IMG/VR virus record: IMGVR_UViG_3300015371_000007
Span: 1-64,000 of that record
Reading direction: 5' to 3' (one strand)
Source of the DNA: a virus
DNA: 64,000 nucleotides
The first letter of the stretch is position 1; every line of letters starts with the position of its first letter. The notes beneath the pieces were generated by a model, which did no database searches, was not told the DNA's origin, and was given only the letters and a program-made list of their open reading frames with translations. Below are positions 3,338 to 64,000 of the stretch, piece after piece. Both the position numbers and the translations under genes were made by a program.

Positions 3338-4323
3338 CGGTCGGGCTGTCGGCGATTCGCGTGGATGACGACATGCAGGTCCGCGCCGGGATCAACCAGC
3401 AGGTTGTCGAGGAGTATGCCGCGAAGTTACGCGCGGGTGCCAAGTTCCCGCCCATCGTGGTCTTCGCCGACGCGCTGGGGTTCTACATCGCGGACGGCAA
3501 CCATCGCTACCGCGCACACGACCTGGCCGGCCGCACCACCATTGAGGTGGAGCTGCGGCAGGGGACCAAGGCCGACGCGTTGTGGTATGCGCTCGGCGCC
3601 AACAAGGCCCACGGGCTGCAGCTGTCGAAGCAGGATAAACGGCACGCGGTGCTTCGGGCCTTTGCCTCGTTCCCTGACCGTGGCGCCGCGGAGATTGCCG
3701 ACCACGTCGGCTGCAGCGCGCAGTGGGCGTGCATCGTGCGGCGGGGGACGGAAACCCCTAGCGATCGGATCGTCACCCGCGCCGGCCAGGTGCGGATCGC
3801 GTCCAAGCGCGCGGCGATTGAGGCGCACCAACAGATCGAGGTGTTGCTGAAGGACGGCGTGCCCAGCGTCGACATCGTGCGTCGATTGCGCGTCGGGCCG
3901 GATCTGGTGTCGTCGATCAAGCGCCGGTTGAATCTCGGCCGCGACCAGTCGCGCGAGGCCATCGAAGCACGGCGCGCCCGCATCCGTGAGATGGCCGCAG
4001 GCCAATACACCTCGCAACAGATCGCCGACGCGGTGGGCCTGACCGACATTCATGTGCGCGAGGTCGCCCGCCGATTCGGCATCGACATCTCGGCCGATCG
4101 CGCAATGGGCAAGATGTTCCGCCACGATGCCAACCGCATCGTCTCGCGCATCGTGCTCGACGCAGAGAACCTCCTCGAAGGCCTCGGCCTCATCGAGTAC
4201 CGCGATCTGGAGCGGGCGCAGATCCCGGCCTGGCTCACGTCGCTGAAAAAGTGCCGCGAGCAACTCTCGACGTTCATTCGTCGCCTGGGGGAGGAGCAGT
4301 CACACAATGGCGAAGCTGCCTAA
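3334..4323 (+). CDS. ParB/Srx N-terminal domain protein with C-terminal HTH motifs
   Basis: FPPIVVF...YIADGNHRYRA ParB motif, ANKAHGLQLS, repeated HTH-like segments; AAGGAG RBS. Confidence 0.8.
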   Translation: MTVGLSAIRVDDDMQVRAGINQQVVEEYAAKLRAGAKFPPIVVFADALGFYIADGNHRYRAHDLAGRTTIEVELRQGTKADALWYALGANKAHGLQLSKQDKRHAVLRAFASFPDRGAAEIADHVGCSAQWACIVRRGTETPSDRIVTRAGQVRIASKRAAIEAHQQIEVLLKDGVPSVDIVRRLRVGPDLVSSIKRRLNLGRDQSREAIEARRARIREMAAGQYTSQQIADAVGLTDIHVREVARRFGIDISADRAMGKMFRHDANRIVSRIVLDAENLLEGLGLIEYRDLERAQIPAWLTSLKKCREQLSTFIRRLGEEQSHNGEAA

Positions 4324-9291: not shown

Positions 9292-9680
9292 CGACGTTCA
9301 TCGTGTTGGGCCCGGCGAGCACCAAGGGCTCGACCGTGTCGTTCATCGGCGCCACCGGGCGGGTCGTGACGAAGGCCGACAACCAGGGACTGGCGAGCTG
9401 GACGCAGGCGGTCGGCTGGGCCGCACGTGCGGCCGGCGTGCGGTGCGCGCCGCGCGACGTCGCCATCCAGATCGTGGCGATGTTCCAGTTCGTGCGGCCA
9501 GAGAGCCGGAAGCATCGGGTGACGCCGACCGTGAAGCCGGACATCGACAAGCTGACGCGCGCGCTGCTTGATGCGCTGACCGGCGTCGGCTACGTCGACG
9601 ACGCGCAGGTCGTGAAGCTGCTGGTGGAGAAAGTCTACGGCGTGGACGCACGGACATGGGTACAGGTCGAGCAACTATGA
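9288..9680 (+). CDS. rusA: RusA-family Holliday junction resolvase
   Basis: KPDIDKLTRALLDALTGVGYVDDAQVV signature. Confidence 0.9.
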   Translation: MTTFIVLGPASTKGSTVSFIGATGRVVTKADNQGLASWTQAVGWAARAAGVRCAPRDVAIQIVAMFQFVRPESRKHRVTPTVKPDIDKLTRALLDALTGVGYVDDAQVVKLLVEKVYGVDARTWVQVEQL

Positions 9681-9883
9681 GCGAAGGACCAGTGGCGACC
9701 GACGAGAAGCCGGCGGTCATGTTCGATGCGGACGTGTGCCGTGCGCTGCGCATTAGTCAGCGCACGCTGCGGCGGCTGCGGCGGGCGCGCGTGTTCCCCA
9801 TCCCCGAGCTGCGGAGCCTCGATAAGCGCCACCGCTACGCGAGGGCCGACGTCGATGCCTACACCCAGCGCGTGAAACGGTGA
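9677..9883 (+). CDS. Excisionase-like HTH protein
   Basis: DVCRALRISQRTLRRLRR...HRYARADVDAY; upstream of the integrase. Confidence 0.7.
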   Translation: MSEGPVATDEKPAVMFDADVCRALRISQRTLRRLRRARVFPIPELRSLDKRHRYARADVDAYTQRVKR

Positions 9884-9931: not shown

Positions 9932-10090
9932 GTGACGCAGACCGCACGACGCCCACGGGACACGAAGGAACCCATCAGCATTCGGCTCGACCGACAGGTG
10001 CTGCGCGCCTGGCGCGCGACGGGCAAGGGGTGGCAGACGCGGCTGGCCGCAGGCATCGCGCGTCTCAAGCCCGTGCCGGGTGCCCGGTAA
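9932..10090 (+). CDS. Orphan BrnA-antitoxin-like ribbon-helix-helix protein (52 aa)
   Basis: MTQTARRPRDTKEPISIRLDRQVLRAWRATGKGWQTRLAAGI; GGAGG RBS; TAATG coupling to the integrase; absent from the ORF track. Confidence 0.75.
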   Translation: MTQTARRPRDTKEPISIRLDRQVLRAWRATGKGWQTRLAAGIARLKPVPGAR

Positions 10091-11223
10091 TGGCCCGCAA
10101 GGATCGCGGCACAAAGATCGCCGAAGGCATCTGGCGCGACGAGTTCGGCTACGCCGTCTCGGTGGCGGTCGGCAGCGGGAAGAACAAGGTACAGCGGGAG
10201 GCCCGCTACCCGTTCGACACGAAGCTCAAGACGATGACCGACTGGCAGGACGAGACGCGCGTGGCGCTGCGAAAGCTGGTGCCCACGCACGGGAAGGGCA
10301 CGCTCGCGGCCGCGGTCGCGACCTACCTCAAGTCGGTCGCCTCGATGCCGACGTACGGGGATCGCGAACGCGACTTGGCGTTGTGGGTGGCGGAGTTCCC
10401 GAATCGCCAGCGGCATTCGATCAAGTCGCACGAGATTTCCGCGGTGCTGCACAAGTGGATAAAGGACGGCTACGCGGCGATGACCGTCATCAATCGGCGC
10501 ACGGCGCTCATGGCGGTCTGGACCGCGCTCGACGGCGCGAAGGCCGTCAACCCGGTTGATGAAGCCTACCGGCCCGACACCGATCCGTTGACGGCGAATG
10601 ACATCCCGTGGCCGACCATCGAGCGCGTGCTCGACGCGGTCGAGGATCGCGGACAAGGCATTCGCGGCCAGAAGCGCACCGACGTAAGCAAGACCAAGAT
10701 CCGGCTGCGGCTGATCGCCTACACCGGCTTGCCGCACAAGCTCGTCAAGCAGATCACGGCGGACGGGATCGATTGGGAGAAGGGCCGGGTGCTCGCAGCG
10801 AAACGGCGCAAGGGCACCGGCGTCGAGGCGCGCTGGCTCCCCATCGCGCCGGAGGCGCTGCGCGCGCTGGAGGACTTCGTCGAGTACGACTGTTTCGGGT
10901 CGTTCTCCAATTCGAGCATGTTGAAGACGTGGCGCCGCGCGTGGCGGTGGGTGCATCCGACCTGGCCGAAGGATAAGAAGATCCCCTGCGTCTACCGGCT
11001 GCGGCATTCCTTCGCGACGGCGACCTACGCCAAGAGCGGGGATGACCGCGGGACGGCACTGCTGCTCATGCACAGCCGCAAGAGCAACATGATCCAGCGC
11101 TACACGCTCGGCGCGGAACCGGAGCGGATGGAGAAATGCGCCGAGGCATTCGCGGACCGGCGCCTGGAACTCGTCAAGGGCGCCGCGAAGCCCAAACCGA
11201 AGCCGAAGCGCAAGGCCGGGTGA
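10090..11223 (+). CDS. int: Tyrosine recombinase (integrase)
   Basis: LIAYTGLP, KRRKG, YRLRHSFAT, LLMH, IQRY catalytic-box region; immediately followed by attP. Confidence 0.9.
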   Translation: MARKDRGTKIAEGIWRDEFGYAVSVAVGSGKNKVQREARYPFDTKLKTMTDWQDETRVALRKLVPTHGKGTLAAAVATYLKSVASMPTYGDRERDLALWVAEFPNRQRHSIKSHEISAVLHKWIKDGYAAMTVINRRTALMAVWTALDGAKAVNPVDEAYRPDTDPLTANDIPWPTIERVLDAVEDRGQGIRGQKRTDVSKTKIRLRLIAYTGLPHKLVKQITADGIDWEKGRVLAAKRRKGTGVEARWLPIAPEALRALEDFVEYDCFGSFSNSSMLKTWRRAWRWVHPTWPKDKKIPCVYRLRHSFATATYAKSGDDRGTALLLMHSRKSNMIQRYTLGAEPERMEKCAEAFADRRLELVKGAAKPKPKPKRKAG

Positions 11224-11242: not shown

Positions 11243-11529
11243 GGTGCCAGCCACATTCGGTGGCTGGCACTGGCTGGCACCGCGGCCGGTCACCCAAAGT
11301 GGCTGGCACCAGTGGCTGGCACCAATGGGAAAAAGTAAAAAAAGGGCCGTATTTATTGGGGGCGCCCGTAGCTCAGAAGGACAGAGCACCGGTTTCCTAA
11401 ACGGAATCCGACCCCCCCCGTCCCTCAAGAATCCCGAAAACATTCAGCTTTTTCACACCCGAGCGTGGCCGCATCCGGCCTCGCTTGGCCGGTGCCGGCC
11501 GCAAACGGCTGGCACCACGGCTGGCACCA
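11243..11529. other. attP: arm-type repeats flanking a core made of the 5' half of tRNA-Arg(CCT)
   Basis: YGGCTGGCAC(CA) at 11261, 11271, 11300, 11313, 11506, 11518 plus inverted copies at 11243 and ~11491; core 11362-11402 GCGCCCGTAGCTCAGAAGGACAGAGCACCGGTTTCCTAAAC. Confidence 0.85.
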
Positions 11530-11545
11530 AGGGGAGTATCCAGTG

Positions 11546-12151
11546 ATGCGCCCCCAGCCCTCGCTGGCGTTCGAGCGCGGCATCGTGATCCCCCCGCCCT
11601 CCCGCTCGCTGGTCATCGACCCGCCGTGGGCCTACGGCGACCGGCTGATGTCGGGCGCCAACGCCAAGCGCGGCGCGGCGAACCACTACGCCGTGATGCC
11701 GCTCGCCCGTCTGCGCGCGCTGCACCCGGACTACGTCGCGTACGACGACGCGCACCTCTACCTCTGGACGACGAATGCCTTCATCAGCGAGGCGCTCTCG
11801 TTGATGGCGTCGTGGGGCTTTCGCCAGAAGACGGTCCTGACCTGGGTCAAGCCGCAGATCGGCATGGGCCACTACTTCCGCAACAACACCGAGCACGTCC
11901 TGTTCGGCGTGCGCGGCAAGCTGGCGACCGCGCAGCGCGACATGCGGACGGCGTTCACGGCGCCGCGCACCCGCCATTCCGAGAAGCCGGAGATTTTCTA
12001 CCGCATCGTCGAGCGGATGTCGCCTGGCCCGTACCTGGAGCTGTTCGCGCGGCGCGAGCGGCCCGGCTGGCGCACGCTCGGCGACGCGATCGACGGGCGC
12101 CCCATCCAACGCGCGCTCAGCGCGCTCGAAGACGAATTGTCGGCGGCGTGA
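11546..12151 (+). CDS. MT-A70 family N6-adenine methyltransferase
   Basis: IDPPW, HLYLWTTN, GMGHYFRNNTEHVLFG, HSEKP, YLELFAR. Confidence 0.9.
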   Translation: MRPQPSLAFERGIVIPPPSRSLVIDPPWAYGDRLMSGANAKRGAANHYAVMPLARLRALHPDYVAYDDAHLYLWTTNAFISEALSLMASWGFRQKTVLTWVKPQIGMGHYFRNNTEHVLFGVRGKLATAQRDMRTAFTAPRTRHSEKPEIFYRIVERMSPGPYLELFARRERPGWRTLGDAIDGRPIQRALSALEDELSAA

Positions 12152-12164
12152 GGAGGGAGGAGCA

Positions 12165-13187
12165 ATGGGGCGCATCGGCCTGACGAGCAACCTGAAGTTC
12201 CGCCACCTCGCCACCACCCTCGGCAGTCGGATGCTGGCGCGCGGCGCGCTGGAGCTGTTGTGGGAGCCGGCCTACGAGATCGGCGATCCGTACGTCGGCA
12301 CCTCGGACGACGTCGAAGCGGTCTGCGGCTGGACGGGCGCGAAAGGCGCGTTGACGCGCGCGCTGCTCGCCGCCGGCACCAAGAGCGGCGCGGGCTTCAT
12401 CGAACCCTACGCCGGATCGGTGCGCGAGGCGACCGAGCCGCACTACCAGATCCACGATTTCTTTCATCACTGCCCGGAGTACGTGAAGGGCCGGCGCGAG
12501 CGCGAGCTGCAGAAGAACACCGCGAAGACCTGCGCGATGTGCGGCGGCGACTACTACTCCTCGCAGGAGAGCCAGTTCTGCGGCCAGCGGTGCCGTGTGC
12601 GCGCCTACCGCGAACGGCACGCCAAGGCTGAGCCTCCATATCACACACCGTTACGGCCCGTAACGGCTGGTAACGGCACTCCCACACCCACACCCACACC
12701 CGCACGTACGTACTCCGTACCAGCGGATGACCCAAGTACCAGCGTACGGGTGGTTGAGAGAAAAGGAGGCGCCGAGGCGCTGACGCGCTCGGCGTCGCCA
12801 CCCCCTGTAACGCCTGTAACGGCCCTCGCCGTTACAGACCCGTCCCCGGTGCTGCTCGTCTTCCCGGTCGTCGGCGGAAAAGCCAAGAAGGGGGAACCCC
12901 CACGGACGACGTGGCCGCTGCATCAAAGCCGCATTGACGAATGGACGGCGGCGTTCGGGACGCTGAACATCCTCGACGAATGCCGGCGCGCGTTGTCGTG
13001 GGTGAACGCGAACCCGGAACACCGGAAGACGTACGACGGAATGCCGTCGTTTCTGCATCGGTGGTTCTCGAAGTCGGTCAACTTCCGCGGCGGCGGCAGG
13101 GTCATCACCGGCTCGCTGAAGACCGCCGGCAACCAGGCGGCGATGGAGGAGTTCCTGCGGAGGCGCGGTCATGCCGTGGACAAATAA
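12165..13187 (+). CDS. Phage replication initiator (O-like organisation)
   Basis: YQIHDFFHH N-domain, CxxC...FCGQRCR zinc motif, central iteron-containing linker, C-terminal ALSWVNANP...FLHRWF. Confidence 0.7.
   Translation: MGRIGLTSNLKFRHLATTLGSRMLARGALELLWEPAYEIGDPYVGTSDDVEAVCGWTGAKGALTRALLAAGTKSGAGFIEPYAGSVREATEPHYQIHDFFHHCPEYVKGRRERELQKNTAKTCAMCGGDYYSSQESQFCGQRCRVRAYRERHAKAEPPYHTPLRPVTAGNGTPTPTPTPARTYSVPADDPSTSVRVVERKGGAEALTRSASPPPVTPVTALAVTDPSPVLLVFPVVGGKAKKGEPPRTTWPLHQSRIDEWTAAFGTLNILDECRRALSWVNANPEHRKTYDGMPSFLHRWFSKSVNFRGGGRVITGSLKTAGNQAAMEEFLRRRGHAVDK
12648..12835. repeat. Iteron cluster (putative origin) within the initiator gene
   Basis: GTAACG(G/C) at 12660, 12670, 12807, 12816 and inverted copies at 12648, 12829; GTACCAGCG twice; CCCACA repeats. 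Confidence 0.65.
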
Positions 13188-15890: not shown

Positions 15891-15984
15891 TGGCGGTGAG
15901 GCAGGGATTTGAACCCTGGATACAACTGTTAGGTCGTATAACGGTTTAGCAAACCGCCGCCTTCAGCCTCTCGGCCACCTCACC
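15891..15984 (-). tRNA. tRNA-Ser(GCT)
   Basis: GGTGAGG acceptor stem, anticodon loop TTGCTAA, long variable arm, GGTTCAAATCC T-arm, encoded CCA. Confidence 0.95.
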
Positions 15985-63800: not shown

Positions 63801-64000
63801 CCACTGGACAGCGGCCCAAAGAGTCCTGCGGAAGTACGGTTTGCGGTACTTTCCCGATGGGCCGACGGCTTCTGGACCGACGACGTCCTCCCCAGCGCCC
63901 GCACCCACGGCTACGACGGCGACGACGCCACCCTCCGAGCCCTCTTCGACGGACGAGTAGCGTCCGCCCACGAATATCTCGAATCGGTGCGCCCGCTCGA
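54822..64000 (+). CDS. Giant ejection/polyvalent protein (>3050 aa, 3'-truncated) with M15 peptidase and C5-DNA-methyltransferase domains
   Basis: Frame read open at the start (GTG 54822), within both domains and at the window end; absent from the track because no stop is reached; SKHQTGTAAD...WGGDW...DRPHVQL (~55700-56050); ILSLYDRTG...QPPCTSF...MENPLG...MTPEGFAYAFF (~60900-61560). Confidence 0.85.
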   Translation, partial: MPSLLNLGTFGRLAQLFQRKKPRDAFLENLDEQWGNAWGTQPDASPPSRDPWLDQIASQYPFGAFDEPAAPAPAPELAMPQPAQPEPADDLAARIRASLGLGDTDEDNSLLAQVESTLRRQPYVQPPALPPAALSPTGAPPASRPPISLAPPDIATIGANVSPLPPWQAARRPAQDVHLPSEPPPAPPPPIPSGPVDMATAGANVSTLPPWAAARPPARDVRLPAPGAPPAPPPAPPMDVATVGANVSPLPPWEAARRARDQQLPPTAPAEDRLTTTETIPQLATPEGYAPPRQDVFKERLARVVQRMADEGYPVKVTSKTRTAAEQAKLYQQGRDGAPGKIVTWADGTTKISKHQTGTAADLAFVVDGRPSWDDKLPWPLLGRIAKEEGLVWGGDWSKQKNDRPHVQLEAEATQEGPYAAAKPLPPKLHGAPPPPPAAPLPTPPSPPVPVTTAEAKKDPFGFVDFIKSLYTTDGVGMVPIGGTLIPVPGLPQVTEAGAEKLPWAGAAFAAADAYQLIAAARRLRDGKATAADQALIEQYAAKEQEMAEHGTSWGYNVAQIVTEMPAFMIEMLSTEGVFTGARTAGKKAAQEAIGKLLKESAAEVMARRSTRWATKVAETAVGAAAQEAAMPTRVVAKMMDYVKPPLHPSLSPEDQRHVEAATKAYETMRGQHDHLTGVYDTVAAQLQPALDEIDTMKAQVDALRAHVNPNNPVSVAGYNAALNALNARIAQVQPQLDRLKADNGQIVDLERQMRTHSAVMDKADQKTLQDTLKEWDDDFLPALFRAIPDQFIEVFTEHAGEAIEPVAQLIGGKLAKTAVGKQVTALKTALLDDWLKLAPGNTISKWVKEIRQGAGYNGVLGEYGEERLADIMRAAMPFTRQAGEPNAAMIRMITGEPTPGAPEGESPRRSAAKEWLYQTTQELAAFAIPDVITHAAEHLPAPGQKPRAFTVPKDVTADELVDLRQRLQVARQSVRAVDDVKELDSRIAKVDTAIAAKMPPSAEGRPVREPAPAAPSGSEAAPPTAALPDTVVETLKKMGLTDPHLADLTSLQAASILSHSDRGALHDPEAAANTDPAAPRTLRSTPDSVAHAETLVETLRAGDRVTDSRGREWHVTQHPVAGGGTVTGLSARDADGPQPGAAFRDASGEWRHNPVVTAIVERGRITRGRAIPPKVTGFTTAKGSVYTVAGSGTSRAKTATGESFGPSDRTVYLDPKTAERAQLHLDNHDEGETTARPHILAGGRIGIVVKNRKTGEVRNDLSRIVRGSTTPAVGLHPFEVWTKDAEGRRRWHFGNAITEVQTDAPTAPAEKPTAVFAFHQPDEKGGALPMYHVQGGPLHRSTVSADTLREHGIDVPETPKFEGRKPATPTPADAPLGEWQPIVGLEGHRVYTSAKARSVAGRNVVYLQAESKDGKRQAFYLDVHGSTRNVDTVDAVAGGDPYGPNGEAPVWNAPTIAAAEEVARLVHWQRVHLTDASDAELDAVSARIKEIVARTEPAKTETPKPEDKPKTEAKPTKPTSEMSDAEIAQAILDRLKAKGQKVAPTTAAPETSRRAPASRPAESQSTDPKAQARAERARLIAELKKEQAQAKEKADTSSTPLKQTDEDVETPLYHAEEEAPSPKAVERMVGIVRSYLNEGITDFTAAARQFQEDYGEDARTLDAALELGWEMLTGHTVSVADALAPPTQAPEPQWRDNLPEDDAETIANDPVEVLEATLREQVQRGKRLREWEAKLVDKQAQIAKLEKIKNPTRKQQKTLVNNRKKVAEEYPRRIAEAKLDIEETWEELDRLMTGIDLADLRARVARNQIKLRTRRTFADAYEQLLNDLTPEARKNAEHHFGRATAGRDVRHLRVAMQIYELLLADDGPEGGEAEAKRLLDATNAYYADKSYLAETHEGRETEHDAFYAALHDAAVLVSGKEDFDPNDLDEWSAGDYVDPSEVGTLIFRTLDPQTASFDVDEFHRAYTDIEFRREPDSTFPPPDTSVNLLRANASGPMHTKAEGAAQIEQWKAAAQEAGRTQDNSRKIILSLYDRTGIISKPWEEAGYSVRRFDISPKADGGTAEDLTEFGNWMAEIEEMLGQGYQIVGVLAQPPCTSFTDSGNSHWDALHDTPNEEWLTRTYGEKATEFFDRPIDYANTLVAVVKLVVAQANPRFYMMENPLGRIDQQNQLPEPTLSFNPFDFGEPFSKKTQIWGEFNPQLPTFRVPGSKEEGGQGSRTWNLSSARKYEREMTPEGFAYAFFMANQAAAQEEWANQERPPYSVPPPGQKYDPTNPDPDLITTPAAFGDEEMPELTPEQAAAQRAEAIRKLKEGAGAPPASRPAESLPTTPADDGQRYVVSSKRGPTRKLGTGGVWQDTHYVTGEITATGPDWTDKRDAARPLTKAEVYQIVQGAAEPEALKITHADDASKTVTIGEVQGYVGQDDEDNAIYDPDKAWGARPAPASQPPRSRPVEKPTDAYDRAFATALKPDDPRWAPLRETGATESQILDVVREVFPEGTTSYHTHPDTGWAFEITGGMVPRVVGTAGTTGVRVSEVGRHLAVQVSRALDIPLNYEARPKAEPKGPAVQFTLDQHPFTAKVTFNRSETNPLYRAVITREGKRVHEYETVDLDDADTWLTRQLTQTVEAFNASPRVTISPADHETVKTYLQALGYNNVTQHKDGSLTVRATEGRQRLVFRATPGTVRPDTGGPSIRRDVERQAGALVVRAHNKTQASTAAFKQFEADLKQFATGRPLPSASMVRNDSREKAQPGGVIELPPTPPPSPDATPQRDIASLPRGTAPPWQMTRKAFRDDRRAYTVPKGNIFASTPEDVMSGAALKDRSRDELIAFAQYSGVPTKGSKEKLANRIQSVWRVRSFLAGQTVQTLSKYPQSDLNRMHKLTHRGKSASFAGKGGQAMSLLKWLATIRKNGLDMMADAIHELHVRKALKDGLDVPAEVLKDYPELAKEVAGGDIDSTTTGAPGSTGDQPASGAAPTGAAGTGQGPAAGGRAPLDSGPKSPAEVRFAVLSRWADGFWTDDVLPSARTHGYDGDDATLRALFDGRVASAHEYLESVRPL
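63679..63960 (+). CDS. Putative overprinted small protein nested in the +1 frame of the giant gene
   Basis: AAGGAGGT five nt before GTG; main-frame third positions become A/T-rich across the overlap. Confidence 0.55.
   Translation: MATLTARQRARQDRLVTNRRPVPPRQELLAQVKDLLRAGVPHWTAAQRVLRKYGLRYFPDGPTASGPTTSSPAPAPTATTATTPPSEPSSTDE

Follow-up and report, generated by a model that had tools for sequence, protein, structure and literature searches.

A temperate phage attP of reversed polarity carries the front half of tRNA-Arg(CCT) between the integrase gene and an MT-A70 methyltransferase gene

The 320-bp gap between a tyrosine integrase gene (int, 10090-11223) and a co-oriented MT-A70 methyltransferase gene (11546-12151) of phage record IMGVR_UViG_3300015371_000007 holds a fragment of tRNA-Arg, and we concluded that this site is the attP of a temperate phage, of the reversed-polarity (front-half) tRNA type. 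The attP core (11362-11402, + strand) corresponds to tRNA-Arg(CCT) positions 1 to ∼40, as judged by identity to tRNA-Arg(CCT) genes, and arm-type repeats lie on both sides of it. It is very probably a working site, by which the phage integrates into a host tRNA-Arg(CCT) gene in reversed polarity, with arm binding and a crossover in the anticodon loop as the layout of the site would predict. Front-half attP sites are a rare and already known kind, to which this phage adds a further case. All coordinates refer to the window, the whole 64-kb stretch of DNA that was analyzed, which is the first 64 kb of a linear 94.5-kb record with 68% GC and 93% completeness (CheckV).

The genes of the 94.5-kb record are phage-type or unassigned, and no host gene was recognized among them. 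Upstream of the int module, two ParB-like proteins, Erf, a YqaJ exonuclease, an HNH protein, and RusA are encoded in a long array of co-directional + strand genes, which is followed by an HTH_17 protein, a BrnA-like ORF, int, the 320-bp gap, MT-A70, and a 340-aa protein. The small HTH_17 protein (68 aa, 9677-9883, + strand; Pfam HTH_17, E 1.6e-08, 35.1 bits, cut-off 27) is encoded directly upstream of the int module and is a candidate excisionase (recombination directionality factor). The BrnA-antitoxin-like ORF (52 aa, 9932-10090, + strand; Pfam BrnA_antitoxin, E 8e-12) runs into int, its stop codon overlapping the int start codon in the TAATG at 10088-10092. Downstream of the gap, the MT-A70 family DNA methyltransferase (+ strand; Pfam MT-A70, E 2.2e-22; PHROG 359, E 2e-54) most likely starts at the ATG at 11546 rather than at 11465, and a Shine-Dalgarno sequence can be read at 11530-36, 9 nt before that ATG. 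The 340-aa protein (12165-13187, + strand) had no match in Pfam or PHROG; a protein atlas feature score of 0.93 to Phage_rep_org_N clusters offers a lead that it is possibly a replisome-organizer or DnaD/DnaT-like replication protein. Farther along the + strand, a single ORF of 7,823 codons extends from 54822 to the end of the window at 64000 and on to 78293 of the record, and takes up about a quarter of the phage genome.

The integrase (377 aa, + strand) was assigned by PHROG 1 (integrase, E 4.9e-15); its score against Pfam Phage_integrase, 22.9-24.1 bits, is under the gathering cut-off of 27.1. The start at 10090 is that of the database gene call, and the first start codon of the open frame is at 9880. 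We found 43 homologues, most of them with PF00589. The closest relatives, at 84% and 69-71% identity, come from soil-type metagenomes, and the group at 43-53% identity takes in the nearest named relatives, at 46%, from a Vicinamibacterales metagenome-assembled genome and an unclassified soil-metagenome record; no match was found among 50,697 deposited phage genomes. The family alignment shows an invariant TGLP followed by a nearly invariant H at about residues 210-216, where the usual tyrosine recombinase motif is TGLR. The TGLR motif of tyrosine recombinases holds the first catalytic arginine. Since box I reads TGLPH instead of TGLR, the activity of the integrase is assumed here from the behavior of the family.

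The core is identical to the first 41 bases of a tRNA-Arg(CCT) gene, up to two bases past the anticodon loop (11394-11400, with the anticodon CCT at 11396-11398), and diverges from there. Identity was 41/41 to the tRNA of contig L002, 38/39 to the displaced host half in the chromosomal remnant L118, and 38/41 to the tRNA of L059. The 3' half of tRNA-Arg is absent from the site. ARAGORN and Rfam reported no tRNA at the core, as expected because it is a fragment; the Rfam matches at the site were sub-threshold hairpins, a reflection of the inverted arm sites. The identity block ends within a few bases of the 3' end of the loop not only in the window, but also in L065, L066, the attL of L118, L130, and L134, and the longest 3'-half relatives begin at about tRNA position 27-29, the others later. 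The crossover segment is probably the anticodon loop itself, to judge from where these blocks end and begin.

The repeat GGCTGGCACC, with up to one mismatch allowed, occurs 12 times in the 64-kb window, and eight of these copies fall within 11243-11528 (four elsewhere), where ∼0.04 would be expected in the 286 bp (shuffle mean of 8.6 per 64 kb). Five arm-type sites lie to the left of the core, in the P arm (11243-11323): 11243-52 (inverted), 11262-71, 11272-81, 11301-10, and 11314-23. Three lie to the right, in the P' arm (11491-11528): 11491-11500 (inverted, one mismatch), 11507-16, and 11519-28, and these adjoin the ribosome-binding site of MT-A70. In relatives, two tandem sites with a TGGCA core stand at the same distance from the tRNA start. 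From their geometry the repeats would be integrase arm sites, and the positions of binding and cutting given below follow from that geometry only. The earlier note had recognized the tRNA 5' end through the anticodon loop, the arm repeats on both sides, and the location between int and a co-oriented MT-A70 gene, and the present analysis bears out each of these. An attL or attR retains one arm only. Because the core is flanked to its left and right by the same repeat and no host gene was recognized in the 94.5-kb record, the site is in the unintegrated attP form.

Two further segments lie close to the core. An AT-rich island in this 68% GC genome (11330-11361, + strand) is located directly 5' of tRNA position 1. 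From this segment to the proximal arm site the alignment of eight co-oriented relatives (L059, L062, L118, L114, L081, L060, L061, and L075) has no indels, its sequence is partly common to L059, L062, L114, and L118, and in L118 it has been kept beside a decayed int. No sigma-70 consensus was found in 11330-11361. The segment is a candidate for a phage-borne tRNA promoter, or else for a DNA-bending site. On the other side, the inner part of the P' arm (11403-11490, + strand) consists by composition and RNA folding of a C-rich, G-poor tract (∼11403-11458) and a stable hairpin (11459-11489). The 78 nt after the core (11403-11480) contain 33 C and 15 G, a C/G ratio of 2.2 that falls at the 99.7th percentile of the genome (top 0.3%), and a ratio of at least 1.8 was found in four of eight comparable 5'-half sites, the window site counted in. 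From its composition, the tract could be a Rho entry site or a set of binding sites for an accessory protein. A C-rich, G-poor tract was also seen on the tRNA-sense strand at the same position in L066, L042, and L045 (C/G 1.8-2.2), and TTTC-type runs occur 3' of the core in several relatives.

A chromosomal junction pair is available from one family member. L118 is a chromosomal remnant in which the host adenine phosphoribosyltransferase gene ends 13 bp before a tRNA-Arg(CCT) 5' half whose match to the tRNA stops just past the anticodon loop. After another ∼1.4 kb come a frameshifted int C-terminus, two arm repeats, the AT-rich segment, a complete tRNA-Arg(CCT), and a hairpin. This layout is exactly the one predicted for the window attP, here observed in a member of the family. 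The displaced half differs from the 5' half of the complete gene at two positions, in the D loop and at position 27. Both are located 5' of the loop, so the exchange maps to the 3' side of position 27, within the anticodon stem-loop.

Starting from the attP anatomy observed in this phage, we infer the crossover position, the role of the arm sites, and all points on transcription as follows. Int would bind the arm sites on both sides of the core, and also the near-symmetrical anticodon-stem sequences around the loop; strand exchange would then take place within the anticodon loop and split the host gene. Because the tRNA segment in the phage extends from position 1 as far as the loop, the host gene's promoter and its own 5' half would stay at attL and face the P' arm and MT-A70. 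The predicted attL would consist of the host promoter, the host 5' half, the P' arm, and MT-A70 as the first gene beside the junction. The predicted attR would consist of int, the P arm, the AT-rich segment, and a chimeric tRNA made of the phage 5' half and the host 3' half with its terminator. Effects of this arrangement on the expression of MT-A70 and of the tRNA are best treated as by-products of the geometry.

The earlier note had gone further and proposed an integration-coupled genetic switch or addiction mechanism, in which the host tRNA-Arg promoter of the lysogen drives MT-A70 and perhaps the replication module while the tRNA relies on phage transcription. We regard such a switch as doubtful. 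In its full form, the host promoter, cut off from the tRNA body and terminator, would constitutively transcribe MT-A70 and possibly the replication module in the lysogen, m6A would be lysogeny-specific, and excision would reconnect these genes to the early array; this chain of events, too, appears rather unlikely. The topology is correct for it, and the junction geometry is the one seen in L118. No intrinsic terminator was predicted between the core and MT-A70, and MT-A70 has a good ribosome-binding site 9 nt before its ATG. There is also a precedent: state-dependent promoter switching with capture of the host tRNA promoter was demonstrated by experiment for ICEKp1 at tRNA-Asn, and comparable regulation has been reported in ICEclc and ICEEc1 (PMC13023037). 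As in ICEKp1, the host tRNA promoter would face an element gene in the integrated state, and leader stem-loops could attenuate the read-through; in ICEKp1, however, polarity is classical, int is the driven gene, and the mechanism was established by experiment (PMC13023037), whereas the present site has reversed polarity and would place MT-A70 behind the host promoter. If promoter capture were true, it would extend promoter switching from ICEs to a phage methyltransferase.

Several observations weigh against the switch. Two stable hairpins with no U tract are predicted for the leader that separates the core from MT-A70 (RNA fold z -3.8), which also holds three candidate Int sites, and the C-rich, G-poor tract after the core could support Rho-dependent termination of untranslated read-through RNA. 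In L065, L066, and L130, the first likely gene beyond the core is read from the other strand, so that promoter capture is not conserved; to the eye, this gene resembles one for an XRE-type repressor in L065 and L066, and for L134 the reading is ambiguous. We looked at 63 MT-A70 relatives in viral contigs, and no tRNA-Arg 5' half or integrase of this family lies near any of them. The position-conserved AT-rich segment suggests a dedicated tRNA promoter; it is just as likely that the rebuilt tRNA uses such a promoter as that it depends on transcription from int, and the tRNA need not rely on the int side as had been supposed, since the segment is common to relatives and was kept in L118. Addiction does not follow from the layout, because excision is reciprocal and restores the host tRNA gene. 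What stands of the promoter swap is its junction geometry; capture itself is not shared by L065, L066, and L130, and the idea is a conjecture that is geometrically sound but lacks conservation among the relatives.

The reading as a working attP of reversed polarity was also compared with the wider integrase family. We gathered at least 120 related integrase loci, and ∼60 of them have a tRNA-Arg gene or a piece of one within ∼1.4 kb of int, mostly within a few hundred bases. Half-tRNA pieces at these loci break in or beside the anticodon stem-loop. The classical form, a 3' half, was found at ∼35 loci (duplicate records counted). A complete tRNA-Arg is present in attP, with the same arm word on both sides, in L009, L023, L037, L049, and L086, and in L060 by a 7-mer. 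A 5' half co-oriented behind int, as in the window, was found in L065 and L066. L130 and L134 are viral contigs with 5' halves that came from a DNA pattern scan, and no homologue of the window integrase was found in them. The two flanks of the 5'-half attPs have repeats or words in common, plainly so in L130 and less clearly in L065, L066, and L134. The attP sites of one integrase family can thus hold either a full tRNA or only one half of it, 3' or 5', and the tRNA piece may run in the direction of int or against it. For L088, L060, and L089, no Pfam match to the neighboring genes helped to tell host from phage DNA.

In a quick maximum-likelihood tree, the window integrase pairs with that of L057 (SH-aLRT 100), and the sister group is L058 plus L059 (support 98). 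In L059, int is directly followed by a co-oriented full tRNA-Arg(CCT), and the nearest tree neighbors with readable downstream DNA likewise have int and then a co-oriented tRNA-Arg. The co-oriented 5'-half state requires at least two origins on this tree, and the attP states are interspersed over it with many switches, which suggests that a reversal of polarity can come about by loss of either half from a whole-tRNA attP.

The same history is relevant to a second alternative, in which the half tRNA is what remains of a decayed, full phage-borne tRNA-Arg and integration has been lost or takes place at another site. The relatives with a complete tRNA-Arg inside attP make the loss of one half a plausible history, and the tree requires many state changes. 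Decay, however, would not halt at the crossover point, and the half that was kept stops precisely at the anticodon loop, a boundary also seen in four other 5'-half attPs. Its 41 bases are intact and match a real tRNA throughout, the sites of both arms are intact, and int is open over all of its 377 codons; we consider a relic site improbable. Least probable of all, and hardly to be expected, is that the repeats are iterons or operators of neighboring replication or regulatory genes whose place around the tRNA fragment is incidental: they do lie upstream of a putative replication module and the last two adjoin the MT-A70 ribosome-binding site, but relatives with unrelated downstream genes also have TGGCA-core repeat pairs, which vary by integrase lineage and keep a fixed distance upstream of the tRNA start, and attP-form loci carry the repeats on both sides of the tRNA piece.

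With the site read as a reversed-polarity attP, we compared it with known systems. Zhao and Williams (2002, J Bacteriol 184:859) reportedly described a tRNA-integrating element of reversed orientation, and Williams (2002) is said to have defined an anticodon-loop class of tRNA integration sites. The site resembles the anticodon-loop class in that its identity to the tRNA stops at the loop, with the two symmetrical strands of the anticodon stem on either side; by this symmetry either polarity would be allowed. It differs from that class in that the attPs of this one integrase family vary in tRNA content (whole, 3' half, or 5' half) and in orientation to int. As in the attP of phage lambda, the core is adjacent to int and flanked by arm repeats, with a small HTH gene upstream, and a run of co-directional genes would be interrupted at int upon integration; unlike lambda attP, the core is a 41-bp tRNA segment, and sites for host bending proteins were not identified.

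That most tRNA-targeting elements carry the 3' portion, as the earlier note had stated, agrees with the literature, in which the 5'-distal type is much less frequent (PMC6563490). That source describes recombination with the 5'-distal part of the tRNA as much rarer than the 3' type, lists archaeal cases, and cites Zhao and Williams 2002 (PMC6563490). The Zhao and Williams element and the archaeal cases reportedly resemble the present site in that the element carries the 5' tRNA portion; displacement of the host 5' part and promoter, and the supply of new upstream DNA by the element, would likewise be common to them. The differences from the Zhao and Williams element are that here the element is a 94.5-kb phage of a soil-type metagenome lineage and the target is tRNA-Arg(CCT).

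In the tRNA-dependent lysogeny of mycobacteriophages, the core is ∼10 bp, the tRNA is not rebuilt, and a complementing tRNA is encoded by the phage (PMC10865867). A tyrosine integrase acting at a tRNA gene, and a tRNA whose fate matters to the lysogen, are common to both systems, but here the 41-bp core would rebuild the tRNA and the phage has no tRNA-Arg (PMC10865867). We rejected tRNA-dependent lysogeny for this phage, because the 41-bp core spans the 5' half and the only tRNA of the phage is a tRNA-Ser(GCT). That gene (15891-15984, - strand) is the sole complete tRNA in the 94.5-kb record, and no tRNA-Arg of the phage's own is encoded there. AGG makes up 2.6% of the arginine codons of the phage.

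Programs that call prophage boundaries usually look for a 3' tRNA fragment by int, and the front-half arrangement is a useful case for them. The family view tells more than the single site, as a whole tRNA, a 3' half, and a 5' half are all found within one tRNA-Arg-targeting integrase family.

The earlier note had expected that the 41-bp core, searched against bacterial genomes, would identify the host. The exact 41-mer gave a single match in ∼185,000 species genomes, on L002, a 45.6% GC contig that is binned as Pirellulales and carries two tRNA-Arg copies. We rejected L002 as the host, since a contig of 45.6% GC is an implausible match for a phage of 68% GC. At E 1e-40, the integrase profile had no match in the 401 genomes searched from the phylum of L002, and neither the attP/attL junction pattern nor the P-arm-plus-core pattern was found in viral contigs. 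No host genome, lysogen, or attL/attR of this phage was thus found in the ∼185,000 species genomes by the 41-mer or in the viral contigs by the junction pattern.

Some minor observations were made on the related loci. The two tRNA-Arg(CCT) copies of L002 (16-91 and 2798-2873) are 2.8 kb apart and have a common 3' flank, and a single compensatory base pair in the anticodon stem distinguishes them; from this layout, the pair may bound a small element with a whole tRNA copy at each end. In L118, the only intact gene in the decayed element (1011-1601) is co-oriented with the displaced host tRNA promoter, and its product ends, by eye, in a PEP-CTERM-type sorting signal. In L114, an integrase of the family and arm repeats lie 5' of a tRNA-Arg(TCT) (1103-1179), and 2.8 kb downstream (4005-4048) there are a second, different repeat pair and a 3'-half fragment; mobile elements may flank this tRNA to the left and to the right.
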